NCBI RefSeq assembly: GCF_058153355.1
Contig: NZ_CM177019.1
DNA length: 64,000 nt
Reading direction: 5' to 3' (one strand)
The notes beneath the pieces are model-generated. The model was not told the DNA's origin and ran no database searches. It was given only the letters and a program-made list of their open reading frames with translations. Shown piece after piece: positions 7,900-39,545 of this stretch (position 1 is its first letter; each line of letters opens with the position of its first letter). Both the position numbers and the translations under genes were made by a program.

Positions 7900-15888
<7,989 letters not shown>

Positions 15889-16216: not shown

Positions 16217-16367
16217 GATCGCCGTAGCCATTAACTGGCTGATTGGTAAGCTAAACCTAAAAGTTGGGGTTGTCAAGACCACCAGAATGACCACCTCTTT
16301 ACTTTGAAACTAACGACATATTTTACGCTCATCCCTCAGTCAATCGTAAGCTAATAAACAACACCAA

Positions 16368-16748: not shown

Positions 16749-16793
16749 TTCAACATCAGCCGTTCTGTCAAAATGGAGTAACTCCTGCTCAAA

Positions 16794-18122
16794 TTATTCA
16801 ACCTTATCTGGAAGTCTTGGCTTCCGTTGAGCACGGATGAACTCAATTACGTCGCCAATTGTACCAGTTTCGCGGAGAGCAAGAAGTTGCGTCATTACAT
16901 TGTGCCAACTCACCTTATCTGAATGTCTACGCAACAGTGGTGTAATACCGCCAAGCGCATTAAACATCTCTCCATACTTACGAGCGGTAAAGGCATCACA
17001 GGCGGGTTCCAGTTTGTCTACAAAAAAGGCTATATGTTCATGTTCCTTTTTCGTGAAGGATTCATTGTATTTAAACGCTGCCACTATATTTGAATAGCCC
17101 TGCTGATTGGCTAAAAGTCGATGGGTCAACATGAGAATTTTGGTGTGATTGGGAGAAAAGTCCCAACCATCCTGCTCCAACGTTGTTTTAACTCGTTCCA
17201 GAGTAGCCTGGCCTTCACATAATGGTAAATCACCACTCCAGTGCACGCCTTTTTGACGAACTCCTTGCCAATTGTTTGTATGGAAAACGCGTACTAAACC
17301 TGTAGCTTCGGGATCTTTAACACACTGCGGTAGCTCAGGTCTCATACGATTAAGGGCATCAACAATTATCTTGTCCGAACGAAAATTGGCTTCTTTACCT
17401 ATTTCAACCACGTCCTGATGTTCCAGCTTTCCACATCCACCACCATAGATTTTTTGCCAATGGTCGCCGAAAAAACCAAATAAAGGTGCTCTAGCTTGTC
17501 CAAGAAAATGCCGTTTAATTGCCTCAATCCAGTTTTTATCAGTGTCCTGGTACTCATCGACCAGAATGATTGGAAAGCGTTCTGCAATCACTCTACGGAA
17601 TTTTTCGTGCTCCATGAGTGAGACAGTTAAAGAAAGAACATCGTCATGATGAAGAGTTATACGATGGTCGCGAATAGAGCGATGTCCAAGATTATACTCA
17701 ACACTACGATTCCCAAGGCTTCCACCAACTTCTTCGAGCTTTTCTGTCCATGTTGGCATTGTCTCAATCAGTTCTCTCAACGGTTTTTGAAAGCTGCTTA
17801 TTAACGACCAACAGAACGCATGATTGGTATCACAAAAAACGATGGGGCTTCGATCTGTTCGCGCGACGATTTCATCCTTCGCCACGTTAGTAAAGGTGAT
17901 GCAGGCAATTTGCTGGCTACGTTTTTCAAATAAATCCTTATTTCGCTCAATCAAGAATCGAAGTGCCTTAATAAGGGAATACGTTTTACCCGCACCAGCG
18001 CCAGCTTCCAGCCGGAAGCTTCGTCCTTCACTGAGGCAAGCATACATAGATTCCAAAGCTCGCTGGCTAGCAGCTTCGGCGGGCGAATGGATCTCAGACA
18101 TCAGCGCTGGCTCCTTCTTCAA
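16794..18122 (-). CDS. UvrD/PcrA-like SF1 helicase, N-terminal segment
   Basis: Walker A GAGAGKTY, motif II ILVDEYQDT, motif III-like FFGDHWQKIY; start overlaps the upstream OLD-family gene by 29 nt. Confidence 0.7.
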   Translation of the reverse strand: MKKEPALMSEIHSPAEAASQRALESMYACLSEGRSFRLEAGAGAGKTYSLIKALRFLIERNKDLFEKRSQQIACITFTNVAKDEIVARTDRSPIVFCDTNHAFCWSLISSFQKPLRELIETMPTWTEKLEEVGGSLGNRSVEYNLGHRSIRDHRITLHHDDVLSLTVSLMEHEKFRRVIAERFPIILVDEYQDTDKNWIEAIKRHFLGQARAPLFGFFGDHWQKIYGGGCGKLEHQDVVEIGKEANFRSDKIIVDALNRMRPELPQCVKDPEATGLVRVFHTNNWQGVRQKGVHWSGDLPLCEGQATLERVKTTLEQDGWDFSPNHTKILMLTHRLLANQQGYSNIVAAFKYNESFTKKEHEHIAFFVDKLEPACDAFTARKYGEMFNALGGITPLLRRHSDKVSWHNVMTQLLALRETGTIGDVIEFIRAQRKPRLPDKVE

Positions 18123-20166
18123 TACTAGTTGTGGCTTCTACAACTTGCGCCAATACTGGATCTTGTGTCATAAGCTCATTGCTGCCAGCTAACCAGCGGA
18201 TTCCATCGACTATGTATTTGGGGGCGTTCCATTCTGTCTCTGTAATCGCGTATTTCAATGCAAATTCTGATTTTTTCCACTCAGACGCTTTATCACGGGC
18301 TTCTATTTCCAGTTCCTGAGAATTTCTCCCTACCAGCCCGAATAAAGCCGAATTTGCAAGGATAAATGCATCTTCGAATGTGCGTCCGCAGGGGCCATCT
18401 GTCACTTCTGCACATTGATAGGCAATACGATTTCCATTACGAGCTTTATCATCGTCACTCCTGGCAATCAAACCAGCTAATGTGAAAGGGGTATCTTCAG
18501 AGAACCATGCTTTCAAACAAGCATTACTGGAATATGTACCAAGATGAACAGCACATGCCTGACCTCCTGCTCTTTGGACTGCGTCCAGATCTGTTATGAT
18601 CAGACTCTGAAGCTCAAGAAACGCTAATAACTCGAAGAACAAATGAGCGTAAGCACCGCCGACTTCCATCACCGTTGCGTACTGGCTCGACAGCTTCGGT
18701 CTCTCTGGTTCGGCTGATTCTAGTTTTTTGATGATGACGGGAAGCAATAATCGCTCGCTTAACCCCTCGACGAGAATCGCTTTATCTGCGAAAAACAGAT
18801 CACAACGTGTCAACGTCATGTATTGATGAAGGAATTTTTTATCTTCAATTAGAATATGATTCAGCCCTTTACGCAGATCTTTAATTTTGGTTTTTCGGAC
18901 ACCTTCCTGAGTCCCCTGTGCTGGAGCCCCCAGAAAATAGCGAATACTCTCGAAACCAGCCGCATTGGCAATGTGAGACGAGTGTGTAGACACGACAAAT
19001 TGTACAGGCCAGGGTCTCCTGTCCTCAGTGCCATCCACCAGTTGTTGTGCAATTTTGGCAAGTTGACGAATAAAAACCTCCTGCATTTGTGGATGCAGAT
19101 GGGCTTCTGGTTCTTCAATGAATATCAGGTGTACACCCGGCTCAGTAACTTCAGCACAAAATGCTTTATAGAAACCAGCTAATTGCAAGAGAATAAATAT
19201 CAGATTACGTGTACCAAGACCGTTATATGACTCCGGTAATGCGATTCCGCTATAACCTGAATAGCGAACTTTCGTGAAGTTTGATAGCAACTTGCTAACA
19301 TCGAGCAATGTTTCAGTATGTAACTCCTGTCCTCCCAATCCTGGGTATCCAAAAGTTTCTAGAGCCGGAATCAGACTGTTGAGCTGGTTTCCGAAGTTTG
19401 TGTCAATTTGAGTCTGAATGTCCTGAACTGCACCTTTCAATGCATCAGCAATTTGTTTATCAGCAGCTCCCGCAGATGCCGAAGAGGCTGTTGCGAAAAG
19501 ATTTTCAACCGTTTTAGCCAGTACATCGGATTCTCGGGACGTCACATCATCAAGTCCTCGCTGAGCGTTGATAAAGCCCGATTTGACCAGACCGCGCAAT
19601 GCACTAGGTGGTAACTCGCGACGATTATCAGGATCGTTGGGATCTTCAGCCCATATTTTCACACAGAAATTATTAGGGATACGTTCTCGCAATATACGGA
19701 GGAAAGCGAGGCGGTCTTCTCTAGAAAGTGGCATTTCAGTCTGACTTTCGAGAAATTGTGTCAGATGGCCATCTTTCAATTCGTATCGGACTACTACCTG
19801 CGCTTCAGAACACGCGGGATCCAAATCGATAACAAAGGGACTCAATGGACCTAATTGAGGTTGTGCAGGGTCGTACTGGAATTTCAGTCGAAGTTCAATG
19901 GCGGGAATAAGTTCTCGAACGAGATGATCTTCCATGCCTTCCTTAAGTGCTTCCAGAACATCACAAAAACGGTCGTAGCAGGAACTGGAAAAGTCTTCAA
20001 GTTGGAAAGTAGCACTACCATCTGCTAAGAATCTGCGTATTATTTCTGAGAGTGATGTTTTTCCGCTGTTGTTTCGTCCAACAATGACGGTCGTCTGTTC
20101 CTCCAATACAAGCTCTGCATCAGCTAAAAGACGGAAGTTTTTAATTTCGACCTGATGAATGTGCAT
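18094..20166 (-). CDS. OLD-family ATP-dependent endonuclease (ABC ATPase plus TOPRIM), GajA-like
   Basis: 690 aa; Walker A GRNNSGKTS, Walker B/D-loop LIFIEEPEAHLHP, H-loop STHSSH, TOPRIM-like AILVEGLSE and ITDLD. Confidence 0.7.
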   Translation of the reverse strand: MHIHQVEIKNFRLLADAELVLEEQTTVIVGRNNSGKTSLSEIIRRFLADGSATFQLEDFSSSCYDRFCDVLEALKEGMEDHLVRELIPAIELRLKFQYDPAQPQLGPLSPFVIDLDPACSEAQVVVRYELKDGHLTQFLESQTEMPLSREDRLAFLRILRERIPNNFCVKIWAEDPNDPDNRRELPPSALRGLVKSGFINAQRGLDDVTSRESDVLAKTVENLFATASSASAGAADKQIADALKGAVQDIQTQIDTNFGNQLNSLIPALETFGYPGLGGQELHTETLLDVSKLLSNFTKVRYSGYSGIALPESYNGLGTRNLIFILLQLAGFYKAFCAEVTEPGVHLIFIEEPEAHLHPQMQEVFIRQLAKIAQQLVDGTEDRRPWPVQFVVSTHSSHIANAAGFESIRYFLGAPAQGTQEGVRKTKIKDLRKGLNHILIEDKKFLHQYMTLTRCDLFFADKAILVEGLSERLLLPVIIKKLESAEPERPKLSSQYATVMEVGGAYAHLFFELLAFLELQSLIITDLDAVQRAGGQACAVHLGTYSSNACLKAWFSEDTPFTLAGLIARSDDDKARNGNRIAYQCAEVTDGPCGRTFEDAFILANSALFGLVGRNSQELEIEARDKASEWKKSEFALKYAITETEWNAPKYIVDGIRWLAGSNELMTQDPVLAQVVEATTSIEEGASADV

Positions 20167-20303
20167 ATGTCCCTCATGATCTATTTATAGTCTATCGATA
20201 AATCTGATGTTATTGCTCTACCTGTAATTTTCATTCTTACGATTGTTTTGCAATGCAAAATATACCTCAGGCCATATTTATTCCTGAGGTATGTTTTGGT
20301 ATC

Positions 20304-21824
20304 TCACTCGGTCAAAGAGGCCTCACGAACATCATCCGGTTGAGGTTGGCACTCTTTCCATCGTCGAATAAGCGTTGCTACACAGGGATTACCCGCCAGT
20401 TGATTCATTCTGACCCAGTCAACATCCACTAATCCAGCCAGAAGTTCAGGATTTAGTTCCCCTTGTAATGGGTGCCACTGGCGAATACTGGGCTGGCGCT
20501 GAATTTGAGGTTGAAGGGGAGCCAAACTCCCGACGATAACGTAATTTTGTTCTGGATCATGCCAGAGTCGTGTAATGCCAGGTATGTTTTTCAACCAGTT
20601 TCGAGGATCACCTAAAGGTAAATCAAAAACACGAGAGAGTAATTTATTCCATGACGCTATTAATGACGAACTGGCTTTCTTTGCCAATTTTTTCTCACCT
20701 GCCAGGAGTGCATTTTTTCTTTCTGGCCATTTGGAAAAAATATAACTTTTTAAAATATCGTAGGTAACATTAAGTTCATTATTGTAATAATACTCACGCA
20801 AAGCACAATTCCACAACTCGCACAGCAAGTCTAGTTCACGCATGAGTGTATTTTTATTGGTATCTGATAATTCACCTTCCTCATTAAGTTGCGCTATATA
20901 AAAAGACAGTATCTTTGTATCTGGTAAGAGCCAGTGGTTTAGTGAGAACTGCTGACTTTGAGTATCAAGAACAGTCATTAATGCATCTAAATTCTCAGGG
21001 ATCATATTAGGGGTGTCGTATTTCGGATCCTGAAGAAGAATGGATATTTCTTCCATTCTATGAATAATTATTGTCAATCTCTGAGCAAATCTGGTTAATT
21101 TATCTTCACTGCTGCCAAAACCTTGCGCTATTGATTCAGGCCGATAAGTATAAGGCCATTTTTTATTTAAGAGAGTAAGAAGAGCCTCGACAGAGGTATC
21201 AAACAGTTTCAGCCTTTCATCGCAGGCTTTAACTAAATCCGGGCAAGAAGGATTAAAAGGTAAAATTACTGGGCGGTCTTGTTCAGCGGTGAATAAATAT
21301 CCTTCGGTGATAACCAATAGGTCATGAGTCAGTAAGTCTTTCTGTTCTGTCAGGCTTGTACTGATTCTTGTTTCTTTGCAAAGTAAAAGATGCTTCAACG
21401 CAAGTTCTTTGTACGCAACTTCGGTATTACGCGCCAATGCATCAAGACAGGTCTTTTTCTCAAGATCTTGAATGGCATAGTCGTAATAGCAAGAATCTAT
21501 CGCAGGGATGAGTCGGGTAGTCCCATCGGGAGTATCCTGCTCAATCAATAAATTATCAACAACAGAATCACCACTAAGATCAAACGGATTAACGTTGATA
21601 TGCTGGCACGCAATTTTAGTTCTTAGATTCTGAGTTAACGGATAGCGGTCATCAATTATACCACGGATCTGATCTAACAAAACAAGTATGCATATAGAGC
21701 TGTCTTTTTCCAATTTTTCAAATGATGAGGGTTCTGAATCCGGTAATAATTCCAGCTGTACATCAGGATACTTTTTGTTCAACACCTTTTGTATCTGCGC
21801 ACTTCCCCGTGAAACCCGGGTCAT
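20304..21824 (-). CDS. hypothetical protein, no recognisable motif; 5' end lies in IS66-derived sequence
   Basis: Long ORF (track 20304-22004); only in-frame Met codons are inside the IS66 tnpC remnant, so the native N-terminus is probably lost. Confidence 0.4.
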
Positions 21825-22843
21825 CCAACCGGAAGAAGAATGCTGCCCGGCCTGTGGTGGCGGGCTCAGTCCTCTGGGATGTGATGTGTCAGAACAACTG
21901 GAGCTTATCAGCAGCGCCTTTAAGGTTATCGAAACACAACGTCCGAAACTGGCCTGTTGCCGGTGCGACCATATCGTGCAGGCTCCGGTGCCTTCAAAAC
22001 CCATTGCACGCAGTTATGCCGGAGCGGGGCTTCTGGCCCATGTTGTCGCTGGAAAATATGCAGACCATCTGCCGTTATACCGCCAGTCAGAAATATACCG
22101 TCGTCAGGGCGTGGAGCTGAGCCGTGCCACACTGGGGCGCTGGACAGGTGCTGTTGCTGAACTGCTGGAACCGCTGTATGACATCCTGCGCCAGTATGTG
22201 CTGATGCCCGGTAAAGTCCATGCCGATGATATCCCCGTTCCGGTCCAGGAGCCGGGCAGCGGTAAAACAAGGACTGCCCGGCTGTGGGTCTACGTTCGTG
22301 ATGACCGTAACGCCGGTTCGGAAATGCCTCCGGCGGTCTGGTTCGCGTACAGCCCGGACCGGAAAGGTATCCATCCACAGAATCATCTGGCCGGTTACAG
22401 CGGAGTGCTTCAGGCCGATGCTTACGGTGGTTACCGGGCGTTGTACGAATCCGGCAGAATAACGGAAGCCGCATGTATGGCTCATGCCCGGAGAAAAATC
22501 CACGATGTGCATGCAAGAGTGCCCACCGACATCACCACGGAAGCCCTGCAGCGTATCGGTGAACTGTATGCCATCGAGGCAGAGGTCCGGGGCTGTTCAG
22601 CAGAACAGCGTCTGGCGGCAAGAAAAGCCAGAGCCGCGCCACTGATGCAGTCACTGTATGACTGGATACAGCAACAGATGAAAACACTGTCGCGTCACTC
22701 GGACACGGCAAAAGCGTTCGCATACCTGCTGAAACAGTGGGATGCACTGAACGTGTACTGCAGTAATGGCTGGGTGGAAATCGACAACAACATCGCAGAG
22801 AACGCCTTACGGGGAGTGGCCGTAGGCCGGAAAAACTGGCTCT

Positions 22844-24667
22844 GTGTGTCACGAAGGAGTACTTATGGCAACAATGTGAAAATTGCAGCATAAGTTATCC
22901 ATGCTCTGAGGTGGGTGGAGGTGGGCCCTCCGGTCAGGGTTTACAGGAGCACTGACCAAACGACCCGGTGCTGCTTCATTCTAAGGAATGAGGTGGTGAG
23001 CGACTCGGGAAAAGGCAGAGATCTACTGTCACGTGGGGTTCGGGAAGCTGAACGAAAGTAAACTGTCCGATGAAGCATCGAAATCTTAGATGATGTCAAA
23101 ATGGGGCCGTACAGCCGTCCCCTGATAAGCGCAGAAGACACCTGCTTACTGACTGCGCGGCATCCGGTGTGAAGGCAGCAGGATCCCGGGCCAGACCATC
23201 TCAGGGAACGTGAGAACCTGTTTCCGGCACGTATCGGGAAACAGGGGCGGACCCATTCGTAGTAGTGATGAAAGATCTGTAATGGGTCTGGAGCGAAGGG
23301 ATGGGGATCACATTCATTGCAGAAGACACAACCCAAAAGGGGATGACGTAACTGATGCAACGAAAATCATTTGAAATACCAAAAGCACTGGTCTGGGCAT
23401 CATATCTGGATGTGCGTCGCAACAAGGGAGCCCCCGGATGCGACGGGCAGACTTTGAAAATGTTCGACCAGCAACGTGATGGCAATCTATACAAGATCTG
23501 GAACCGGCTATGTTCGGGAACATGGTTTCCGCCACCAGTGCTGGAAAAACGGATCCCGAAGTCGAATGGCAAGGAACGCATTCTGGGGATCCCAACAGTA
23601 TCCGATCGAATTGCTCAGGGAGCGATAAAACTTTTCATGGAAGAAAAGCTTGACCCGATTTTCCATGCTGATTCATATGGTTACCGACCAGGCAAATCAG
23701 CTCATGACGCTCTGAAACAATGTGCCATCCGGTGCTGGCGTTATAGCTGGATACTGGAAGTGGACATCAGTGCGTTTTTCGACCATGTGAGACATGATCT
23801 GGTGCTCAAAGCTCTGGAACACCACGGGATGCCTAAATGGGTCATCCTGTACTGTCGACGCTGGATGGAAGCGCCAATGCAGAGTTGTGAAAATGGAGAA
23901 TTAATAACCCGAACACGAGGCACTCCGCAGGGCGGGGTCATTAGTCCACTACTTGCTAACTTGTTCCTTCACTATGCATTTGATTTGTGGATGGAAAGAG
24001 AATATCGGGGGGTACCGTTTGAGAGGTACGCTGACGATATTGTAGTACATTGTTCACGAATGAGTGATGCAACAAGGCTGAAGAACAGGTTATCGGAGCG
24101 CTTCTCGGAAGTCGGGCTGGTCCTGAATGCAGGGAAAACGAATATCGCCTACATTGACACGTTTAAAAGGAGAAACGTCGCAACGAGTTTCACCTTTCTC
24201 GGATATGACTTCAAAGTGCGTACGCTGAAGAATTTCAAAGGCGAACTGTACCGAAAATGCATGCCGGGTGCGTCAAATGCAGCAATGCGCAAAATAACAG
24301 AAACAATCAAGAAGTGGCGTATACATCGCTCAACAGCTGAGAGTTTGCTGGATTTTGCGAGGCGCTACAATGCGATAGTGAGAGGCTGGATCGAGTACTA
24401 CGGAAAGTTCTGGTCCAGAAATTTCAACTATCGACTGTGGAGTGCAATGCAGTCACGTCTGCTCAAGTGGATGCAGTCTAAATACAGACTTTCGAACCGG
24501 AAGGCTCAGCGAAAGCTGACGCTGGTAAGGAAGGAGTATCCGAAGCTATTTGTTCACTGGTATTTACTACGTGCATCAAATGAGTGATCAAGAGCCGTAT
24601 GACGCGAGAGTGTCACGTACGGTTCCGTGAGCAGCCGGGGAGTGAAATTCTCTCCGGCTGACTCGAC
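22844..24667 (+). mobile_element. group II intron (~1.8 kb) with intron-encoded reverse transcriptase
   Basis: 5' GTGTG start; domain V-like GAGCCGTATGACGCGAGAGTGTCACGTACGGTTC near 3' end; joining the flanks restores the TnpC frame (KNWL-FAGSDSGG). Confidence 0.7.
23355..24587 (+). CDS. group II intron reverse transcriptase/maturase
   Basis: 410 aa with RT motifs including YADD and a C-terminal maturase-like region. Confidence 0.8.
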   Translation: MQRKSFEIPKALVWASYLDVRRNKGAPGCDGQTLKMFDQQRDGNLYKIWNRLCSGTWFPPPVLEKRIPKSNGKERILGIPTVSDRIAQGAIKLFMEEKLDPIFHADSYGYRPGKSAHDALKQCAIRCWRYSWILEVDISAFFDHVRHDLVLKALEHHGMPKWVILYCRRWMEAPMQSCENGELITRTRGTPQGGVISPLLANLFLHYAFDLWMEREYRGVPFERYADDIVVHCSRMSDATRLKNRLSERFSEVGLVLNAGKTNIAYIDTFKRRNVATSFTFLGYDFKVRTLKNFKGELYRKCMPGASNAAMRKITETIKKWRIHRSTAESLLDFARRYNAIVRGWIEYYGKFWSRNFNYRLWSAMQSRLLKWMQSKYRLSNRKAQRKLTLVRKEYPKLFVHWYLLRASNE

Positions 24668-24852
24668 TCGCAGGTTCCGACAGCGGTGGCGAACATGCGG
24701 CGGTGTTGTACTCGCTGATCGGCACATGCCGTCTGAACAATGTGGGGCCAGAAAAATGGCTGCGTTACGTCATTGAGCATATCCAGGACTGGCCGGCAAA
24801 CCGGGTACGCGATCTGTTGCCCTGGAAAGTTGATCTGAGCTCTCAGTAAATA

Positions 24853-26796
24853 TCAATACGGTTCTGGCGAGCCGCTTACGTTTAATCGGGAAATCTCATA
24901 TTTTCGGTTCATCATTAATGGCAGAAGGAAGCGTTGATGCTGTTGACGAGAAATTTCACCAGCACGGAGCAGTTTTTCTAGGTTGCGTAACTGGAAACCC
25001 GCATGCGCCATATCATCATTGTTCTCTGTATTGGCCTGAAAAGCGGAAAAGTAATAATGCCGTGATTCCAGCAAATATAAACAGGTCAGATCCATATTTT
25101 TGCCAGATTCAGGCAGGCTGAAATCCAGATTCACACCATTCGTCGCAGAGGCGGTCTGAGTCAGCACAATGACAATACGCCGGGAGGCAAATGCGGCCTG
25201 ATAAGCATCACTAAAGCCCTTTTTCTTCTGACATTCTGCGGTTAACAGACAAATCAGCGCAGGCTCATTATGTATGCTCACTGGGATAAACACATCAGCA
25301 AAATTTTTTAGTAGAGGATCATCAGATAAAGGTTGTTCCATTTTTAACCATGCGAGGTATTCTCTACTTTGTGTTGCTATTGTAGTGGTAAGCCATTTTC
25401 TTAAATAGGCTATGGAATTCACGAAAGCAAGATGCCCCCGGTGTTGAGGTCTTTTTCCCGCAAGATCCAATACATTAAGCAATTTTAGCAGTATATTTTT
25501 TCGATATTCTGATTCGAAATCTGATGAGGGGTCATCGCCATTCTGGAAAAAATCGGGGGCTAGCGAAGCGAGCAGATCAACACAATGCGGGTTATTCTTT
25601 ATGCTATTGAAATCTTGAATCTCAGCATTCAGTTGTGTGTTTCTGATATTTTCTTTGCTGTTATTGATCTCTTCAATAGCTAAATACTGCAACTGGAAAT
25701 CATCAGCCGTCTGGACATAAGGTATCGGTTCTTTAAACCACTCGACAGGTCGTTTTTCAAAAGTTGTTCCCAGAAAACTTTGTGTAACAGCAGGGTTGCG
25801 TGCTTCTGCAATATAACGAAGAGCTGAATTAATCCACCGGACATCGAAGTGATTACAGGCTCTTTCAATATATGACGTAGCCGACAGTGCAAAGACAAGA
25901 TTACGACTGGCGAGAGAAAGCAGCAGACCTTCTGCCGTCGTGGGCAGAAAGGCACGTTTGATCTGTATCCGTAACGGATCGATATCCGTATCTGAGACAT
26001 TCTGTTTCAGCAACCAATTGGTCAAGCCAAAAATACTGGCATGAGTATTTGGCAAAATATTACTTTTCCTTAATTCCCGTAGTTCCGGCAGGTCAGTACG
26101 CGGTAACAAAAATCGGGACATATTGGGCAGGGTTGAGCCGTAGTATGAAGGCCTGTAATCATTAACGGGGTCGAACAGAAGTCGGGTTAACTTTTTAATG
26201 TATTCATACGCTTCATCTTCACTTGCAGTCAGGTCGGTCAACATTAGGCTAAACTGTCGAATGAATTTTTCCATCAAGCGTAAAAAATCACTGATGTCGA
26301 TAGTCTGATCGCTATCCTGAAGCGGAGAGTCTGGCCTGATAATTTCGTATCCATGTTCCGCTTTCCGCATAATAAGCCGTTCACTGGTCACCAGTTGATC
26401 GGAACGGAATAAATAATGCTCACCAAAGGGTTTATTATCCAGATATTGCTGAAGAGGAATAACCAGCGATCTGGCATGTGTTAAATCAGCATGTTTTTCT
26501 GTTAATGCACTATCCAGATCATTAATAAATTTTTCTAGACGTTCACGGATCATAGGTGCAGGTTCCATTTCAACATACTGCATACGTTGTAGTAATCTGC
26601 GTCCCCCGTCGAGCAACTGACCCAGACACTCAGGTGGTTCCTGAACCCATTGCGCCTGTGCCAGATACTCTTGTAATACCTCAGACTGGTAATCAAATTC
26701 ATCGATGAAAATGATGTAATTACGCAGCTCTTTGCTGGACATTTTTACTTTGCGACGCCCATCGTAAAACGATGAAACCATCTTTTGAGTCGTCAT
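24853..26796 (-). CDS. hypothetical large protein, downstream part of a split P-loop NTPase; Walker-B-like IIFIDEFD near N-terminus
   Basis: 647-aa ORF; stop codon lies inside the IS66 terminal repeat; starts 2 nt after the stop of 26799-27572 in another frame. Confidence 0.45.
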   Translation of the reverse strand: MTTQKMVSSFYDGRRKVKMSSKELRNYIIFIDEFDYQSEVLQEYLAQAQWVQEPPECLGQLLDGGRRLLQRMQYVEMEPAPMIRERLEKFINDLDSALTEKHADLTHARSLVIPLQQYLDNKPFGEHYLFRSDQLVTSERLIMRKAEHGYEIIRPDSPLQDSDQTIDISDFLRLMEKFIRQFSLMLTDLTASEDEAYEYIKKLTRLLFDPVNDYRPSYYGSTLPNMSRFLLPRTDLPELRELRKSNILPNTHASIFGLTNWLLKQNVSDTDIDPLRIQIKRAFLPTTAEGLLLSLASRNLVFALSATSYIERACNHFDVRWINSALRYIAEARNPAVTQSFLGTTFEKRPVEWFKEPIPYVQTADDFQLQYLAIEEINNSKENIRNTQLNAEIQDFNSIKNNPHCVDLLASLAPDFFQNGDDPSSDFESEYRKNILLKLLNVLDLAGKRPQHRGHLAFVNSIAYLRKWLTTTIATQSREYLAWLKMEQPLSDDPLLKNFADVFIPVSIHNEPALICLLTAECQKKKGFSDAYQAAFASRRIVIVLTQTASATNGVNLDFSLPESGKNMDLTCLYLLESRHYYFSAFQANTENNDDMAHAGFQLRNLEKLLRAGEISRQQHQRFLLPLMMNRKYEISRLNVSGSPEPY

Positions 26797-26798
26797 GA

Positions 26799-27572
26799 TC
26801 AGCAGGTGTTGCTTTTCGTCACGCCAGGCAATGGCGGGCAGAATGCGCCTGACCCAGACGTGGCGACGGAAATCTGCAACTCGTTGCCTGGCTTGGCTGC
26901 CTGCGTGAGTTCATGTTCTTCGCCATATTTTTCTTTTTGTTTCTTGGCTTCTTTTTCCAGCAATTTGATATTCTGAATCAGAGTTATCTCCACCGCTGCG
27001 CATGATTTGATTAATGACTCTTTCTCACTGGCGATGGCCGTCTGAAAACGCGTCGGATATCCTTTCAGCGATTTGTTAATATGCAGTATGTTTTTGCAAT
27101 TTCTACGCAATTTGTCGGCGATATCCTGAATGGCAAACAAATTTCTGTCTTCCAGGATATTGATGGAGTCAAATGGATCGGGAAGTGAGTCTGCGGAAAT
27201 ATTATTCTCATGAGGCAAGGGGGTGGCCTCGATGGCAGAAACGATCTGTTCATCTTGTGCATAGAGCACGCTGACGGTGAATGGTTCCCCGTTACTGTCT
27301 TTATGCGCTGCCGTTTTCTCATAAATGTCGTGCAAAATATTCCAGCGATGGGTAACCAGAATGGCTTGAGAGCCTGATTTTTTTATCGTCTCCAGCGCCG
27401 GGAGAGCGTTATCGGCATAGCCAGAGCGGTAGAGTGAGCTGGTTTTTCCGCTACCCGTAGGCCCCTGAAGCTGACAAAATCCTGCGATACGACGGGATGT
27501 TTTGGATTTTTTTGCCTGAGAAAGGGTGTATTCAATAACGGCATTGTAGGAACGTATTAAAGGGGCACTCAC
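26799..27572 (-). CDS. P-loop NTPase N-terminal segment (Walker A GPTGSGKTS)
   Basis: 257-aa ORF with Walker A near residue 40; low-complexity C-terminal tail suggests a frameshift into the next ORF. Confidence 0.45.
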   Translation of the reverse strand: MSAPLIRSYNAVIEYTLSQAKKSKTSRRIAGFCQLQGPTGSGKTSSLYRSGYADNALPALETIKKSGSQAILVTHRWNILHDIYEKTAAHKDSNGEPFTVSVLYAQDEQIVSAIEATPLPHENNISADSLPDPFDSINILEDRNLFAIQDIADKLRRNCKNILHINKSLKGYPTRFQTAIASEKESLIKSCAAVEITLIQNIKLLEKEAKKQKEKYGEEHELTQAAKPGNELQISVATSGSGAFCPPLPGVTKSNTC

Positions 27573-27885
27573 ATTTCACCTCATCCGTGTCAGGTTATCG
27601 AAGAGTAGAATTTCAGCAAATTCATGTTACACCGAACGGGTATCATTTCAATGTTTAATAATAATTTCCCCTTATAAAACAACGCTTATAATACATTCGC
27701 AGGTCAGATGATTTATCGGTGTGTTATTTGTTTGAATTTGGTGTTGTGGTTTTCTTTTTTTAACAATCTTCGATCTTCCTTCCACGACTTCCCCTTGCCG
27801 TTTTCAACCGAAAGCGGTATCTTTCACTTGCACCTGCAAAATCAGGTGCCGGGATTGGAACCCCGAAATGTAACCATACTGGCGA

Positions 27886-27910
27886 CACGTGACGCGTCTG
27901 CGTCTTTTTT
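27886..27910 (+). terminator. hairpin plus T-run (GACGCGTCTGCGTC-TTTTTTT)
   Basis: Short GC stem followed by seven T on the plus strand. Confidence 0.35.
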
Positions 27911-28075
27911 TATGTCGCGCGCTTAGCTACACCAAAATTATGGTGGGCTGGGCGGGGGCACCGTAAGGTGCGCCGGTTCCAGTATGGCCGGTAGTTCCAA
28001 CCTCGTTCAGTCCACCACCCATGAGATTGGAACCTCTGGTGGTGGTTTTCAAACCACATACTGGAGGCTGCCTTT

Positions 28076-28543
28076 ATGGCTACGATCCCCACTCAGACAC
28101 ACCCGTTACTTGCTGTTCCCTTCAATGCTGCCACAGATTTTACCGTACTGGCAGACCACTGTGAAAACTTCGCCGAAACCCTGATCGAAAGCGACGACCC
28201 GGTGCTGCGGCTGGCGCTTTGCGGGCGGCTTGCCGCCTGTCTGACTCTGCTGCAACCCACGCTGAACGAACCCATCCCGTCCCATCTGACTGACAGCCTG
28301 ACCGTTGATGCTCTACCTGCCGATATGCCCCGATTTGTCCCCGACGCTGAATTACTTTGTGACTACTCACTGACGCTGGCGCAACTTCTTATCGGGCAGG
28401 GGATGCTGCCAAAAATGGAGCAGACGATAACTGGCTTATTATGTGAACTGGTCTGGTATTTTGCCGCTGAAATGAAAGCCCCGCGTTGGCTGCGTACTGC
28501 CGGTGGCGTGAAGTTTATCGATGGTGTGGAGGCCAAAGCATGA
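28076..28543 (+). CDS. hypothetical protein (155 aa), translationally coupled to Ner-like gene
   Basis: ORF with no recognised motif; stop overlaps the next start. Confidence 0.4.
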   Translation: MATIPTQTHPLLAVPFNAATDFTVLADHCENFAETLIESDDPVLRLALCGRLAACLTLLQPTLNEPIPSHLTDSLTVDALPADMPRFVPDAELLCDYSLTLAQLLIGQGMLPKMEQTITGLLCELVWYFAAEMKAPRWLRTAGGVKFIDGVEAKA

Positions 28544-28746
28544 TGCAGTCTGACTGGCATCCTGCCGACATTATCGCCGGGCTGAAAAAACGTGGCACTT
28601 CGCTGTCAGCGCTTTCGCGTCAGGCTGGGCTGGCGTCCTCCACGCTGGCTAATGCGCTTACCCGCCGCTGGCCCAAAGGTGAAAGATTGATTGCCGAAGC
28701 GTTAGATGTTGCGCCTGAGAACATCTGGCCTTCGCGCTATCGCTGA
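28540..28746 (+). CDS. Ner/Nlp-family HTH DNA-binding protein
   Basis: MMQSDWHPADIIAGLKKRGTSLSALSRQAGLASSTLANAL...WPSRY resembles Nlp/Ner; start placed at internal Met of ORF 28486-28746. Confidence 0.6.
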   Translation: MMQSDWHPADIIAGLKKRGTSLSALSRQAGLASSTLANALTRRWPKGERLIAEALDVAPENIWPSRYR

Positions 28747-28892
28747 TGTCCTTCCGGCGCAGCCACGATACGGAAGCTGCGCCGCATTTCGTTTATCTGA
28801 TTTGTCATAATCCTTTGAACCGCAAAAACAGTTTTCTATTATCGGCCTTCTTACCACGAACTAAGCTCCCGCCTGTACAAAATGCTTCATGA

Positions 28893-28920
28893 CCTGAAAG
28901 AAGCGCCTGATGTATCAGGA
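28893..28920 (+). repeat. imperfect direct repeat copy 1 (CCTGAAAGAAGCGCCTG...TATCAGGA) upstream of pemI
   Basis: About 30 bp shared with a second copy at 29862-29889. Confidence 0.45.
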
Positions 28921-29093
28921 TGGTCGCCGTTTTACCGGCAATGCCGCCTTTGAAAACTGCCGGATCTGTCCTTCGATGGATTAAGGCTTTCTTCATACTT
29001 TATTACGCTAAGGAAATCACAATGAATCTGATGAATAATTGTGCATCGCCTGCCGTAGATGTTATATTAAAATATAATATTCGGAGGTGCTCT

Positions 29094-29351
29094 ATGTATA
29101 CAACTCGCCTGAAAAAGGTCGGCGGATCCATCATGCTGGCGGTTCCCCCCGCCGTGCTGAAAACGCTGGAGCTGTCGACGGACAGCGAAGTGGGTATGAC
29201 CATTGATAATGGCTGCCTGATTATTGAACCCCAGAAACGGCCCCGTTATTCGCTTGAGGAGCTGTTGGCGCAGTGCGATCCGCACGCAGAAATGAGCGAA
29301 GAGGATCGGGAATGGATTGATGCGCCTGCGGTGGGCAAGGAGATCCTGTAA
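29094..29351 (+). CDS. pemI: PemI/MazE-family antitoxin
   Basis: MYTTRLKKVGGSIMLAVPPAVLK...YSLEELLAQCDP closely resembles plasmid R100 PemI; start at internal Met of ORF 28920-29351. Confidence 0.8.
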   Translation: MYTTRLKKVGGSIMLAVPPAVLKTLELSTDSEVGMTIDNGCLIIEPQKRPRYSLEELLAQCDPHAEMSEEDREWIDAPAVGKEIL

Positions 29352-29684
29352 ATGGACAGAGGGGAAATCTGGCTGGTTTCACTGGATCCGATTGCAGGTC
29401 ACGAGCAAAGCGGAAAACGTCCGGTGCTTATCGTATCGAAGGCATCGTTTAACAAGCTGACCCGGCTACCCGTTGTTGTTCCCGTTACCAGCGGTGGAAA
29501 CTTCGCCCGTGCAGCCGGTTTTACCGTCTCACTGGACGGTGCGGGAACAAAAACAACGGGCGTTATTCGCTGCGACCAGCCCAGAACCATTGATATGGGA
29601 GCCCGGAGCGGAAAGCGACTGGAACGTATACCCGATGCTGTCGTGAATGAAGTGCTGGCCCGACTGGAGGCCATTCTGAGCTGA
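29352..29684 (+). CDS. pemK: PemK/MazF-family toxin
   Basis: MDRGEIWLVSLDPIAGHEQSGKRPVLIVS...LPVVVPVTSGGNFARAAGF closely resembles PemK. Confidence 0.85.
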   Translation: MDRGEIWLVSLDPIAGHEQSGKRPVLIVSKASFNKLTRLPVVVPVTSGGNFARAAGFTVSLDGAGTKTTGVIRCDQPRTIDMGARSGKRLERIPDAVVNEVLARLEAILS

Positions 29685-29861
29685 TGCTTTTTATGTAAAC
29701 TGAATGATGGCGCTGTCATATACAGCGCCATCATTTTTTATAACGACAAGTGATTAAAAAATCCTTTTGCAGGTAAAAACAGTTTTTCCTTTCTCCGCCA
29801 GCGGTACTGGCATAGTCTCCCCCTTGCCCTATGCTGTCGTTGACAGCGCCACGCTTCACAA

Positions 29862-29889
29862 CCTGAAAGAAGCGCCTGTTATCAGGAGG
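29862..29889 (+). repeat. imperfect direct repeat copy 2, downstream of pemK
   Basis: Matches 28893-28920 with a few mismatches; partial similarity extends ~40 bp further. Confidence 0.45.
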
Positions 29890-30119
29890 TTGAGCCCTTT
29901 ACCGGTGCAGACCTTTGCAAACACCGGGTCGCAGAACATCGCGACGGAGGCCAGAGTTTTAACACGATACGTCCTTTTACTGCGCCAGCCTGCTGGTCTG
30001 AATCTGCCCCGCGCCGGAATTTTCCCGGTCAGCTTATATTTGCTGACACCCTCAGCACCTTTTACCTCACGGGCTGCGGCATGCATTTGCCGCAAGGCAT
30101 TTGCTGACGCGTGCCCGTA

Positions 30120-30250
30120 AAACTGCACCAGACGGTAAATTTTCAGACGCTGCACCAGACCCGTGCGTCACTTTAACCGCGCAGAGCGGGAAAGTGACGC
30201 ACGCAATCCCTTTCGACCTGCACCAGAAAACTCAACTGCGCCAGCTCACG
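30120..30250 (-). repeat. array of CTGCACCAG/CTGCGCCAG motifs upstream of the recombinase gene
   Basis: At least four copies near 30123, 30149, 30220 and 30238, in opposite orientation to the array at 31618-31881. Confidence 0.45.
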
Positions 30251-30535
30251 GCTGGAGTCTGACACCGCCTTTTCAGGCCATTTACCTATAAGGAGAACAT
30301 GAATCGATACCGAGGCGGATCCGGACGATCCGGGGGATAACCCGCGCAAGCGGGCGGCTGCTCAGAGAGCACAACCGAAGCCCCACCACACCTCAACGGC
30401 TGCCGCCCCGGCGCTCAGGTATCGTTCGCAGCCCCGACAAAAAAACAGGGGCTATCGGCCTGTGCGCCGGGGAAAGCTGTATCAGTGTTGGTTTTTTGGG
30501 GGATGAGTTTGCGGCAATCATGAAAAGGGGAATGT

Positions 30536-31423
30536 ATGGGGATACTGGAGCAGGAAATGACGCGACTGGCGCAGCAGGCGGGTGGCAGCTACAAAACTGT
30601 GGATGACCGCATCAGGCTGGCGCAGCGGTTTTGTGAGCGTCTGGTTCTGGCGCAGAACGTACAAATCCGCCGGGTGGAGCAGCTTAAGGCGCGGCATATT
30701 GAAGGCTATGTTCGTGAACGGCTGGCGCAGGGCATCACAAAGCGTTCCCTGCAAAATGAGATGGCGGCGGTGCGCTGCATTCTGAAACAGGCCGGGCGTG
30801 ACAGGCTGGCGCAGAGTGAGCGGCTGAATAACCGCTCGCTGGGATTGTCCGGAGCATCCCGTAACGGGACGAAGCTGGCTATTACACTGGAGCACTATCG
30901 TGATGTGCTGGAGACCGCCCGCGTAAAAGATCCGGGGCTGGCGGCAGCGCTGGAGCTCTCAAGGTTGATGGGATTACGTTCGCAGGAGGCGGTGCAGAGT
31001 GTACAGTCGCTGAAAACGTGGATACAGGCGCTGGAGCGTGGTGAGTCCCGGTTAACCGTGGTGTTCGGCACCAAAGGCGGACGGCCCCGCGAGACGATTA
31101 TTCTTGATGCTGGCGTAGTTAAAAAAGCGCTGGATAATGCGCTGGTGGTGGCTGAGGATCGTCACGGCAGGCTGATAGATAAGCCCGATCTGAGAAGCGC
31201 GATGAAATACTGGCACAGCCAGGCGTCGGGTCTTGGTTTAACTGGCGCATATTCCCCGCACTCGTTGCGCTATGCCTGGGCGCAGGATGCTATTCGTCAT
31301 TATCTGGCGCAGGGATTTTGTGAGAAGGAAGCGCTGGCGATGACGGCGATGGATTTGGGTCACGGCGACGGGCGCGGGCGGTATGTGGCGCAGGTTTACG
31401 GGCGAAAGGGGGATGCTGATTGA
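30536..31423 (+). CDS. small tyrosine recombinase/integrase-family protein
   Basis: 295 aa; C-terminal HSLRYAWAQ box and candidate nucleophile in GRGRYVAQVYG; LAQ-rich N-terminal domain. Confidence 0.5.
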   Translation: MGILEQEMTRLAQQAGGSYKTVDDRIRLAQRFCERLVLAQNVQIRRVEQLKARHIEGYVRERLAQGITKRSLQNEMAAVRCILKQAGRDRLAQSERLNNRSLGLSGASRNGTKLAITLEHYRDVLETARVKDPGLAAALELSRLMGLRSQEAVQSVQSLKTWIQALERGESRLTVVFGTKGGRPRETIILDAGVVKKALDNALVVAEDRHGRLIDKPDLRSAMKYWHSQASGLGLTGAYSPHSLRYAWAQDAIRHYLAQGFCEKEALAMTAMDLGHGDGRGRYVAQVYGRKGDAD

Positions 31424-31446
31424 TAGCTTCAGACTTGCAATATGAT

Positions 31447-32005
31447 GTTATTCATCGTTTTCCGTACAAAATTATTTGCCTCAAATAATTTTGGGTGATT
31501 TCCTATTAATCCCGGGTTATTCATCGTTATTCACCGAAAAAATTTCTACGTAGAAATTTTTTGTTCGATTTCCTCTCAATAAAAATGCTTCTGAACGGTA
31601 TGGCCTATTAACAGGCCTCTGGTGCAGTATTACGGTATTTTACTGATGATTGCGCCAGCAAAAGGAAAAGGCCAAATAATGGTAAAGGGCGACTAAGGGT
31701 AACAGCGCCAGACCGGAAAGGGCCAAAAGGCTAAAAGGCCTTAACACTGGCGCAGTTTGATGTTTATCCAATAATATCTGGCGCAGTCCTGACATAGACA
31801 GGTGACAGCGGACTGGTGCAGTAAATGGTGACATTGAACTGGTGCGGATACGATGTATTGGGAAATCAGTTTCTGGTGCAGATTATCTGGCAGCTATCGT
31901 CTGGAGATTATTCACTGTGAATAATTTTCGTTATTTGCCTATTGATTCATAATATATTGATAGGTTTTCGTACAAAATTATTCTACGTCGAATAATTTTG
32001 TACGC
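31447..32005. promoter_or_regulatory. cluster of perfect palindromes (candidate operators or recombination sites)
   Basis: CAAAATTATTTG-CCT-CAAATAATTTTG (~31466-31492); 24-bp AAAAATTTCTACGTAGAAATTTTT (~31539-31565); ATTATTCAC-T-GTGAATAAT (~31907-31925); GTACAAAATTATTC...GAATAATTTTGTAC (~31969-32002). Confidence 0.5.
31618..31881 (+). repeat. array of CTGGYGCAG direct repeats at ~26-35 bp spacing
   Basis: Copies near 31618, 31747, 31778, 31813, 31839 and 31873. Confidence 0.5.
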
Positions 32006-32055
32006 TTTCCGATTAATAACCCAAAAGTTGAAGATAAATCCTTTCAATGTAAAAA

Positions 32056-32088
32056 GCAGATCCGGATTCAATCGGGATCTGCTTTTTC
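32056..32088. terminator. bidirectional hairpin terminator between recombinase region and integrase 3' end
   Basis: AAAAAGCAGATCCGGATTCAATCGGGATCTGCTTTTT: 10-bp stem flanked by A-run and T-run. Confidence 0.55.
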
Positions 32089-32116
32089 ATTCTTAACAAA
32101 TCATATTGCTACTGGC

Positions 32117-33379
32117 TCAGGCCGCCTTATGCCGTCGCGCATAAATATACGGCGCAACGTATCCCTCGCGGCTCACGTCCAGATAATCCGACCACCACTG
32201 CATCATGGCTGTACGGGCGTCAAGATGTTCAGCCCGGTGGATATACGCCGCCCGAACGCTGTTGCGCTCCTGATGACTTATCTGCCGCTCCACCGCATCC
32301 CGTGACCAGAGCTCAGATTCCACTAATGCGCTACAGGCCATTGCCCGGAAGCCATGCCCGCAAACGTCAGTTTTAGTATCGTAACCTATCAGACGCAGCG
32401 CCCGGTTGATGGTGTTTTCACTCATCGGTTTATACGGGTTATGGTCGCCGGGGAACACCAGTTCCAGATGGCCGGAAATTTCGTGTATCTGCTTCAGAAT
32501 GGCAATAGCCTGTCGGGAAAGTGGCACAATATGTGGGGTGCGCATTTTCGCGCCGCGACCAGAGAAACGGACTTTCTCAATCGCTTCCCTTGTGGCGGGG
32601 ATGATCCAGATTTTGTTTCTGAAATCTATCTCACCCCAGCGGGCAAAGCGCAGCTCGCTGGAACGGATAAACAGGTGGAGAGTCAACACCACCGCCAGCC
32701 TCGTAAGCTGTCGTCCCTGCCGATAGTCGCCAATGCGCTCAAACAATTCGGGCAACCGCTCCAGCGGCAGAGCGGGATAGTGATTCTTAACCGGCGGCGC
32801 GGTGACGCCTTCCAGATGCTGCGCCGGGTTGTTTTCGGTCAGTCCCTGCTGAACGGCGTAACGCATGATGTTGCAGAGTTGCTGCCGGGTACGGGACGCG
32901 ACTTCCAGAAAACCTTTATCCTCAATAACCCGCAGTAACGCAGTGAAATGCTGCGTTTTCAGCGTGGTAACGGGCAGATGGCCAATAGCCGGAAATATAT
33001 GGTTATTCATGCTGGCGAGAATGCGCTCTGCATAATCAGGCGACCACTTTTTGTTGGTTTTGTGCCATGCAAGCGCTACAGCTTTAAAACACTTTTCCGG
33101 TGAAGTGGCGGCTTTTTCATCCATGCGTTGTTGGGCGGGGTTGATATTCTGCGCCAGTAGCTTGCGGATAGCATCGCGCTGTTGCCGGGCTTCAGCGAGA
33201 GAAATCAGCGGATATGCGCCCAGACTGACGCGGGACTCTTTACCACCGAAGCGATACTTGAGATACCAGATACGTGAACCGCCGGGATTGACCAGCAAAT
33301 ACAGACCGTGTGAATCAGACAGTTTGACGGGTTTGGAAGAGGGTTTTAAGTTACGGATTTTTGAATCGTTTAAAGACAT
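32117..33379 (-). CDS. int: P4-type tyrosine integrase
   Basis: ORF 32117-33481; start placed at MSLNDSKIRNLKPSSKPVKLSDSHGLYLLVNPGGSRIWYLKY, a P4-integrase-like N-terminus; adjacent to tRNA-Asn. Confidence 0.8.
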   Translation of the reverse strand: MSLNDSKIRNLKPSSKPVKLSDSHGLYLLVNPGGSRIWYLKYRFGGKESRVSLGAYPLISLAEARQQRDAIRKLLAQNINPAQQRMDEKAATSPEKCFKAVALAWHKTNKKWSPDYAERILASMNNHIFPAIGHLPVTTLKTQHFTALLRVIEDKGFLEVASRTRQQLCNIMRYAVQQGLTENNPAQHLEGVTAPPVKNHYPALPLERLPELFERIGDYRQGRQLTRLAVVLTLHLFIRSSELRFARWGEIDFRNKIWIIPATREAIEKVRFSGRGAKMRTPHIVPLSRQAIAILKQIHEISGHLELVFPGDHNPYKPMSENTINRALRLIGYDTKTDVCGHGFRAMACSALVESELWSRDAVERQISHQERNSVRAAYIHRAEHLDARTAMMQWWSDYLDVSREGYVAPYIYARRHKAA

Positions 33380-33540
33380 TTGGGGGTCACTCCAGAATCG
33401 AACCAACCTGACCCCAAATCTGACCACCAAATTAACCGGATGCGGAGGGAAAACTGAATACGCATCTGGAAAGATTTTCACGCTAACTTATTGAATCAAT
33501 ATCAAATAAAGACTAATAAGGTAGCGTAAGAATCGAAATT

Positions 33541-33616
33541 TGGCTCCTCTGACTGGACTCGAACCAGTGACATACGGATTAACAGTCCGCCGTTCTACCG
33601 ACTGAACTACAGAGGA
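33541..33616 (-). tRNA. asnT: tRNA-Asn (GUU), island integration target
   Basis: Exact reverse complement of the 76-nt tRNA-Asn at 1688-1763; symbol by synteny with yeeJ and mtfA. Confidence 0.9.
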
Positions 33617-38987: not shown

Positions 38988-39545
38988 TCAACAATGAATT
39001 TTGAGTAATTGCTCTACAGTCATATTTTTAATTGCGCCCCGGTTAACAAGAGTCCATCCCTGTTCTTCCAGATAAAACCGGAAAGTCTCCATGGTACAGA
39101 CCCGTGCGCCATCAGGGACGGTTTCGGTGAATCTGATGTTGCCGCGTTCGTCGAAGTGAACAACCAGGGTGCGGCCATCGCCTGGAATTATTTTGTCAGT
39201 GGGTGGGGTGTTATTCTGGCGCAGCTCGGCCTCCATGCGGTCGAACTCAGCAATGTAGGTTTCTTTGAATGCAGCGGCTTTTTTGCCTGTGAAGCCCATC
39301 ACCAGGAAAACGAAGCCGTTTTTGGTGATTTGGTACATTGGGCGTTTTTCGCCTTTGGCGTCGGTATAGGTGACGGGCTTAAAATTAAGCCGGTTAAACT
39401 CCGGCGAGCATTCGAGAGTTTCGATCTTCTGAATAACGTTTTTGTGCATTTTCCGGAAGAACTCCGCAACCGCAACAGACGTAGTGACAGCGCGACCATT
39501 TTCGATGGTTACGTCAGGGTGAGAAAGGGTAAGGATAGTAGCCAT
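38988..39545 (-). CDS. Rha-family phage regulatory protein
   Basis: Start placed at MATILTLSHPDVTIENGRAVTTSVAVAEFF within ORF 38988-39839. Confidence 0.55.
   Translation of the reverse strand: MATILTLSHPDVTIENGRAVTTSVAVAEFFRKMHKNVIQKIETLECSPEFNRLNFKPVTYTDAKGEKRPMYQITKNGFVFLVMGFTGKKAAAFKETYIAEFDRMEAELRQNNTPPTDKIIPGDGRTLVVHFDERGNIRFTETVPDGARVCTMETFRFYLEEQGWTLVNRGAIKNMTVEQLLKIHC

Follow-up and report, generated by a model that had tools for sequence, protein, structure and literature searches.

We describe a two-gene unit and its RNA leader in a 64,000-nucleotide stretch of DNA from NCBI RefSeq assembly GCF_058153355.1, contig NZ_CM177019.1 (hereafter the window). The unit consists of an open reading frame (ORF) of 155 codons, here called ORF155, and an overlapping gene for a Ner-like winged helix-turn-helix (HTH) protein. 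Both follow two RNAs matched by Rfam, isrK and C4, which also occur in the immunity region of satellite phage P4. The pair is probably the payload of a P4-type RNA immunity cassette and part of the conserved backbone of a small integrative defence island at tRNA-Asn.

Leader RNAs and the gene pair

The leader, the pair and the sequence just beyond it contained the following features.

27795–27823, plus strand: putative cassette promoter, with −35 TTGCCG (27795–27800), a 17-nt spacer and −10 TATCTT (27818–27823)
27830–27910, plus strand: isrK / P4 seqA-like RNA (Rfam RF01394, 71.1 bits; gathering score 50)
27855–27861 and 27874–27882, plus strand: isrK decoy sites b1 (TTGGAAC) and a1 (CCATACTGG), from the sequence
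27891–27904, plus strand: stem of the isrK intrinsic terminator, followed by a T7 run (terminator scan)
27936–28022, plus strand: C4 / P4 CI-type antisense RNA (Rfam RF01695, 83.2 bits; gathering score 45)
27978–27987 and 27994–28000, plus strand: C4 recognition elements, loop a′ (UCCAGUAUGG) and bulge b′ (GUUCCAA), from the sequence
28027–28067, plus strand: mRNA target region, with b2 TTGGAAC (28027–28033) and a2 CATACTGGA (28057–28065)
28076–28543, plus strand: ORF155, 155 codons, ATG at 28076, stop TGA at 28541–28543, Shine-Dalgarno (SD) sequence GGAGG at 28063–28067
28540–28746, plus strand: Ner-like winged-HTH gene (HTH_35), 68 codons, ATG at 28540–28542, own GGAGG at 28528–28532
28755–28784, plus strand: 9-bp GC-rich hairpin with a weak U tract

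Element a′ of C4 is complementary to a2 and b′ to b2, and the target copies a1 and b1 sit inside isrK. Site a2 overlaps the SD of ORF155. Folded alone, C4 holds a′ in a hairpin loop and leaves b′ unpaired (z = −4.2), and the short isrK RNA gave a fold z of −2.3. In the minimum-free-energy fold of the read-through leader, a′–a2 and b′–b2 are paired in cis and the SD is buried (z = −5.3). The −35 and −10 elements are the first conserved columns of the leader alignment, and homology between loci starts at the −35, at about −260 to −300 from ORF155. An inverted repeat in the promoter spacer (27796–27819), called terminator-like by the scan, was rejected as a conserved hairpin or operator (65.5% paired vs 62.3% shuffled).

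We compared 80 loci with ORF155 homologues from 80 genome records and aligned 73 leaders. Elements a′/b′ were paired with a2/b2 in 97.1% of cells, with 226 compensatory changes vs 55 ± 5.6 when shuffled and 27–46% pairing when slid, and with a1/b1 in 96.7% of cells, with 220 changes vs 56 and 24–46%; relatedness inflates the shuffle test, and the slid controls retain it. Among the 73 leaders there were 9 b′ strings, 33 a′ strings and 45 a′/b′ combinations, a free reassortment of a and b alleles that points to many independent events. Cognate C4-target sets paired at 14.93 of 15 positions and non-cognate sets at 11.47 of 15. Full complementarity was found in 7.9% of non-cognate pairs across genomes, and at both sites in 0/51 non-cognate combinations within a genome. 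The alignment shows the predicted C4 loops, downstream targets and isrK decoys co-varying across species, and it shows ORF155 as the predicted direct antisense target, in the position of kil or icd, with the Ner-like gene coupled to it in the position of epsilon or ant. The preliminary description of the pair, which was made from the letters and their ORFs, had considered what the two genes might regulate. It missed that the pair itself is predicted to be controlled by an antisense-RNA switch, irrespective of any genes that the pair may control.

The ORF155 stop and the Ner-like start overlap in an ATGA (28540–28543). The GGAGG of the Ner-like gene is located inside the 3′ end of ORF155, and each of the two start codons has a GGAGG 7–8 nt on its 5′ side. 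The overlap was kept in 36 of the ~40 Ner-positive loci of other species, in keeping with the preliminary view that the genes are translationally coupled. The ratio of nonsynonymous to synonymous substitution rates (dN/dS) was 0.21 for ORF155 (dS ~1) and 0.12 for the Ner-like gene, and mean protein identity was 64% vs 80%, making ORF155 the faster-evolving member. ORF155 is taken as a real gene because of its dN/dS of 0.21, and at the level of sequence both members are genuine genes, not chance ORFs. Their predicted products are acidic (ORF155, isoelectric point (pI) ~4.5) and basic (Ner-like protein, pI 10.4). The hairpin at 28755–28784 had a fold z of only −1.2 and the terminator scan made no call there; it may mark the end of the bicistronic unit.

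The two proteins and their loci

ORF155 had no match in Pfam, NCBIfam, PHROGs or PADLOC, which agrees with the earlier remark that it has no recognisable motif, and a profile search of the PDB returned nothing at E ≤ 1. Its homologues formed 411 clusters at 90% identity, all within Enterobacterales, and a profile search of 1.84 billion representatives returned only 224. Their length is kept at 142–159 aa across genera, the SD and ATG are conserved in the leader alignment, and homologues down to 51% identity are still intact. The AlphaFold model has a disordered N-terminus, a bundle of four helices and a beta-hairpin at the C-terminus (mean predicted local distance difference test (pLDDT) 81; pLDDT of at least 90 for 72 residues). 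The N-terminus reads MATIPTQTHP, and the first ~10 codons belong to the RNA cassette. The phage collection contained a single unannotated 1.4-kb ‘phage’ fragment with ORF155. Matches in the plasmid collection included records of chromosome size classed as plasmids, a few smaller, non-mobilizable ones (‘hypothetical protein’) and one weak Pantoea match. By these searches, phage and plasmid collections contain essentially none of the family. Two relatives, P0248 (291 aa) and P0245, carry an ORF155-like domain, an in-frame Ash-like translation and then a new MAATPTQLHP start, so an ORF155-type gene can directly precede a further isrK-C4 cassette (tandem cassettes). A breakpoint at codon 138 (KAPRW) in Ner-less copies was rejected as a recombination site: members of the 145-aa subfamily end in the same brief conserved tail (...AH-stop), so that their C-terminus is a variant one rather than a truncated one.

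Homologues of ORF155 were labelled ‘hypothetical’, or ‘ash family protein’ where the start was called too far 5′. The Pfam family PF10554 (‘Ash protein family’, Phage_ASH) aligns to the translated isrK-C4-target leader of P4, to two cassettes in the window (the one at ORF155, 27830–28105, and a second described below) and to a related locus (L001, 12264–12560), and it aligns to this leader translation in RefSeq ‘ash family protein’ calls as well. Phage_ASH appears to be the protein image of an RNA element and gives rise to mis-annotated ORF155 genes with extended N-termini. Annotation pipelines label the RNA cassette ‘ash family protein’ and often fuse it to ORF155, and the RNAs and the true start are thereby hidden. 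The paper on MIR17-GI (PMC6177240) bears on this locus only through its ‘Ash/cI’ labelling.

The second gene had been described as Ner/Nlp-like, and profile searches confirmed this. Its product matches Pfam HTH_35 (PF13693; E = 8e-33, 112.7 bits with a cutoff of 25, residues 5–68) and PHROG 769 ‘transcriptional repressor’, and its alignments to Mu Ner (1NEQ, E = 2e-26) and EnrR (7F9H, E = 5e-23) run from end to end. It did not reach the SfsB/Nlp equivalog (NCBIfam NF007670; 103.5 bits vs a cutoff of 150), and we class it as a Ner-family paralogue, not the chromosomal sfsB. Neither it nor ORF155 matched PADLOC-DB 2.0 at E ≤ 0.01. We know of no other Ner-family gene under C4 control. EnrR of Edwardsiella is, like the Ner-like protein, encoded on a horizontally acquired island, where it counteracts H-NS on AT-rich horizontally acquired genes, but the N-terminal extension of EnrR that promotes H-NS competition is absent from the Ner-like protein (PMC9023278).

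The isrK-C4 leader abuts an ORF155 homologue in ~74 of the 80 loci, and C4 was placed at −141 to −54 from ORF155 in 17/17 loci sampled with Rfam. Two classes of locus were found. Class A (Ner-positive, ~40 loci) comprises variable cargo, promoter-isrK-C4-ORF155-Ner, an optional toxin-antitoxin (TA) pair, EFASI RNA, Integrase_1 (PF12835), a P4-type integrase on the opposite strand and a tRNA, and this island gene order was also present in E. coli EC28 and LF82 and in 17–22 other species. The cargo 5′ of the promoter is a defence hotspot and differs between loci (Avs2, PDC-M54A, AbiE, type I restriction-modification (R-M), unknown giants), and the slot 3′ of Ner is occupied by PemIK in some loci, whereas in others it is taken by Gp49/HigB-HTH_3 or left empty. 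In class B (Ner-negative), ORF155 is more divergent and has a different C-terminus, shared DNA runs only from the −35 to the ORF155 stop, the neighbours are ordinary core genes, and a tRNA lies within 8 kb in only a few loci. In the 64 loci whose flank was long enough, one or both integrases (int and/or Integrase_1) were present in 22/30 Ner-positive vs 2/34 Ner-negative loci. Ner-less copies of ORF155 were intact in 38/40 cases, with dN/dS ~0.30. The profile search and neighbourhood comparison that the preliminary description had proposed therefore found conserved neighbours: isrK and C4 on the 5′ side and, in the Ner-positive class, EFASI, Integrase_1, the P4-type integrase and the tRNA on the 3′ side.

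Several genomes had three to five isrK-C4-ORF155 copies. Four or five separate units per genome were seen in Serratia marcescens, ‘Enterobacteriaceae bacterium 89’, RIT691 and Leminorella grimontii (locus sets L017/L032/L044/L047/L051, L050/L055/L056/L062/L064, L057/L059/L066/L073 and L045/L049/L053/L070). Most of these units sit amid core genes without integrase or Ner, and a/b specificity differs from unit to unit. The pairing of EFASI with Integrase_1 also occurred in 9/9 other class-A loci scanned. Further RNAs near the cassette were STAXI between Ner and EFASI in Klebsiella spallanzanii (L020, 8837–8977) and sRNA-Xcc1 just 5′ of the cassette promoter in Mixta and Tenebrionibacter (L005, 7572–7656; L016, 1245–1329).

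The island in the window and known systems

The island that holds the pair, and a second cassette in a neighbouring tRNA-Ser-associated element, were composed as follows.

16197–33556: integrative island of 17.3 kb, bounded by a 20-nt direct repeat of the tRNA-Asn 3′ end, AATTTGGCTCCTCTGACTGG, at 16197–16216 and 33537–33556
16794–20166, minus strand: Gabija-like pair at the far island end, an OLD-family ATPase-TOPRIM protein (690 aa) and a UvrD-type helicase
20304–27572, minus strand: remnant of the divergent ‘candidate defence operon’
22917–24667: group II intron that fills part of the operon gap, with its reverse transcriptase at 23355–24587
29094–29684: PemI/PemK
30299–30428: EFASI RNA (119 bits), ~100 nt 5′ of Integrase_1
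30536–31423, plus strand: Integrase_1 (PF12834+PF12835)
32117–33481, minus strand: P4-type int
33541–33616: tRNA-Asn, its 3′ end within the right repeat (33537–33556)
39545–39835, minus strand: second cassette, isrK 39712–39788 and C4 39600–39687

The same island was present at a tRNA-Asn in 41/5,426 complete E. coli genomes. The att-like repeats are intact in the window, and the island may be excisable. ORF155, Ner, the TA genes, EFASI and Integrase_1 all point the same way, so transcription from the C4-controlled promoter could conceivably read through into the recombinase. In the divergent operon, the homologue of a 1300-aa LF82 protein retains residues 1–896 with a frameshift near residue 226, and that of an 818-aa LF82 protein retains residues 321–818; neither protein matched PADLOC, even in its intact form. 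The UvrD-type helicase ORF is 442 aa here vs 577 aa annotated in LF82 and may be truncated. The cargo has a GC content of 41–46% vs 56% for the ORF155-Ner pair. A tblastn search with all P4 proteins against 82 loci, the window included, found int only (30/82), and no homologue of alpha, epsilon, sid, delta, psu or vis was present in the window or in 81 related loci (±8 kb). Judged by its gene content, the island is not a P4-like satellite. We rejected membership of the EARL/ROD21 family of Asn-tRNA islands (PMC6035254), because its defining type IV pilus, MobA relaxase and TraD genes are absent here.

The gene of the second cassette is of the Rha family (Phage_pRha; ORF from 39545 down to 38988), begins MATILTLSHP and is antirepressor-like. 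Each of the two window C4 RNAs pairs 15/15 with its own targets and 8–9/15 with those of the other cassette, and the two switches look mutually blind.

To our knowledge, almost all work on C4/CI-type RNA immunity has concerned P1, P4 and one Gifsy-1 locus, and the switches known from them guard antirepressors or replication genes. An Rfam scan of the P4 minus strand placed isrK at 8615–8692 and C4 at 8420–8507, followed by an ORF that begins MATTLTPSHP, which we take to be kil; the P4 record annotates only the old 137-aa ‘cI’ ORF. The P4 immunity region (PLE, seqA, CI RNA, seqC/kil, epsilon) and the locus described here have in common the order isrK then C4, the overlap of the first ORF with the next gene, which is epsilon in P4, and an integrase of the same type. 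The N-termini of the two proteins share the pattern MAT(T/I)(L/P)T..HP, which lies inside the target region, and hhalign aligned ORF155 to the P4 ORF over residues 1–18 only (probability 4%). The payloads are unrelated, kil (65 aa) and epsilon in P4 vs ORF155 (155 aa) and a Ner-like HTH protein here; alpha primase, sid, delta, psu and vis of P4 are absent here, and the operon appears to be two genes long. P4 ORF151, which fits ORF155 in neighbourhood and size, was rejected as a relative when hhalign found no similarity.

In the immI region of P1, the c4 elements a′/b′ pair with upstream a1/b1 and also with a2/b2, which lie where ribosomes bind the first gene; the downstream gene is translationally coupled to that gene. 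The pairing logic and the coupling of P1/P7 immI (c4, icd, ant) resemble those predicted here, and Rfam RF03163 (c4-a1b1) overlaps the isrK region in the related loci L055, L009 and L037. In contrast, neither ORF155 nor the Ner-like protein resembles Icd or Ant, and the setting is a chromosomal island, not a plasmid prophage.

IsrK corresponds to P4 seqA and C4 to the P4 CI RNA (PMC3632133), and P4 CI pairs with seqA and seqC, leading to premature termination (PMC4825925). In isrK-orf45-anrP of Salmonella Gifsy-1, isrK has its own terminator with a C4-like processed RNA downstream, and the mRNA that reads through isrK stays translationally inactive unless IsrK acts on it in trans (PMC4825925). 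The Gifsy-1 payload is an antirepressor that switches on the toxic antiterminator AntQ, vs ORF155 and Ner here. In S. Typhi, transposon-directed insertion-site sequencing (TraDIS) found IsrK-like genes of P4-like prophages to be required (PMC3632133).

The Ner-less unit of ~0.75 kb also resembles type I TA systems (hok/sok, ldr/rdl, ibs/sib), with an RNA predicted to mask the ribosome site of the adjacent ORF, up to five copies per genome and mutually non-matching RNA specificities. Type I TA proteins are, however, small hydrophobic peptides, whereas ORF155 is modelled as a 155-aa soluble acidic helical bundle, and the type I RNA is encoded antisense, whereas C4 here is co-transcribed upstream on the same strand.

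Interpretation and alternatives

On the reading that a P4-type immunity cassette carries the pair as its payload, control of the pair can be sketched by analogy with P4, P1 immI and Gifsy-1. In the integrated resting state, most transcripts would end at the isrK terminator. In those that read through, C4 would mask the ribosome site of ORF155, either in cis or as a processed RNA in trans, and with ORF155 untranslated the Ner-like gene would fall silent through lost coupling and polarity. Both proteins would be made where C4 is absent or outcompeted. IsrK, bearing the same target sequences, could act as a decoy, and derepression could be triggered by entry into a naive cell, by an excess of IsrK decoy or by a drop in C4.

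We infer that ORF155 works independently, because it stays with the cassette where Ner and the integrases are missing, and it is most likely a kil/icd-like effector against a host or phage process. Stand-alone units, orthogonal RNA specificities and the requirement for IsrK-like genes in S. Typhi (PMC3632133) point, by analogy, to a kil-like protein that would be harmful if unscheduled. The Ner-like protein is presumably a DNA-binding regulator of the island backbone of the Mu-Ner/EnrR type (Cro/Ner-type). It would most likely feed back on the cassette promoter or act on integrase expression, because its gene co-occurs with both integrases.

Several points weigh against this account. RNA processing, termination and repression are drawn wholly from analogy, and the predicted promoter falls below the consensus-scan threshold. 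The tie to the cassette is not absolute, as the distant homologues P0259 and P0172 have no isrK or C4 at Rfam thresholds. ISEc1 lies inside isrK at the b1 site (~27853–27864 equivalent) in LF82 (L002, 10712–12000) and most other E. coli carriers, while EC28 and ECO20 have an uninterrupted leader. The insertion cuts the promoter from C4-ORF155-Ner in LF82-type E. coli, and both genes are intact nonetheless, which argues against strict dependence on the cassette promoter. The association of Ner with the integrases may amount to no more than the difference between complete and decayed islands.

It is possible, if on the whole doubtful, that promoter-isrK-C4-ORF155 is an autonomous selfish or defensive module, with ORF155 a toxin or abortive-infection effector silenced by a CI-type RNA from its own leader. 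This would explain why the 0.75-kb unit is the sole part that survives outside islands, intact and under purifying selection, and why a genome can hold up to five copies whose C4 RNAs never fully cross-match, as well as the ‘required’ IsrK-like genes of transposon screens. The Ner-like repressor of full islands would then be an added protein-level brake or a link to excision. We consider it unlikely that the island is a degenerate P4-like satellite, with ORF155 an epsilon-like antirepressor and Ner a Cro-like switch, both expressed on helper-phage infection. The P4-type integrase and immunity cassette would fit a satellite, as would the antirepressor-like Rha-family gene behind the second cassette, and P4-like satellites are known to carry defence hotspots (PMC9122126). 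The missing P4 homologues, the near-absence of ORF155 from the phage collection and its lack of similarity to epsilon or ORF151 all argue against it.

The preliminary description had suggested that the pair could regulate the divergent operon or pemIK, and we regard such a dedicated role as rather unlikely too. The pair is divergent from the large operon and adjoins pemIK, Mu Ner represses divergent promoters, and EnrR offers a precedent for a Ner homologue on an island that counter-silences H-NS (PMC9023278); the cargo here is richer in AT than the pair. The cargo and TA slots vary between loci, however, while the pair is constant, and homology stops exactly at the cassette −35, so there is no shared operator toward the cargo. 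The divergent operon of the window is moreover a remnant, disrupted by frameshift, deletion and the group II intron, and PemIK-type modules autoregulate. General, cargo-independent anti-silencing of AT-rich cargo promoters by the Ner-like protein, as for EnrR, may still occur. That the two proteins form a type II-like TA or abortive-infection pair, with the acidic effector neutralised or autoregulated by its basic HTH partner, seems improbable. Overlapping genes, small products of opposite pI and a defence-island setting beside the TA slot would suit such a pair, but co-occurrence is not obligate: ORF155 stands without Ner in 34/64 loci, and the Ner-less copies are nearly all intact and under purifying selection. 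Neither protein matches PADLOC or a TA family, and the Ner-like protein is the more conserved partner, unlike most antitoxins. An ORF155-Ner linker fusion modelled by AlphaFold on a paired 23-row alignment gave a predicted template modelling score (pTM) of 0.54 and left both domains unchanged, with no evidence of binding between the two in that model. Finally, ORF155 might be no gene at all but, like the ‘Ash protein’, a reading frame that happens to run across a conserved RNA or DNA element. Phage_ASH shows that such artefacts arise at this very locus, and the first codons of ORF155 do belong to the cassette, yet codon-level selection at dS ~1, length conserved across genera, a confident AlphaFold model, conserved SD and ATG, and intact copies at 51% identity make this extremely improbable.

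The regulatory principle of the cassette is already known, whereas the searched literature contains no description of the payload family, of its near-obligate tie to the cassette, of the island architecture or of the stand-alone copies. In the payload reading, a P4-type switch here guards a different, uncharacterised family in dozens of enterobacterial genera, with a combinatorial diversity of 45 specificities in 73 leaders. The switch occurs both in small tRNA-Asn/Phe defence islands, whose systems include Avs2, AbiE, type I R-M, Gabija-like and unknown ones, and at sites without an integrase. Were ORF155 a kil-like effector, the unit would represent a new addiction or abortive-infection module under RNA control. 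Should ORF155 and Ner control island excision or cargo expression, they would supply the regulatory logic that has been missing for a common class of mini defence islands.

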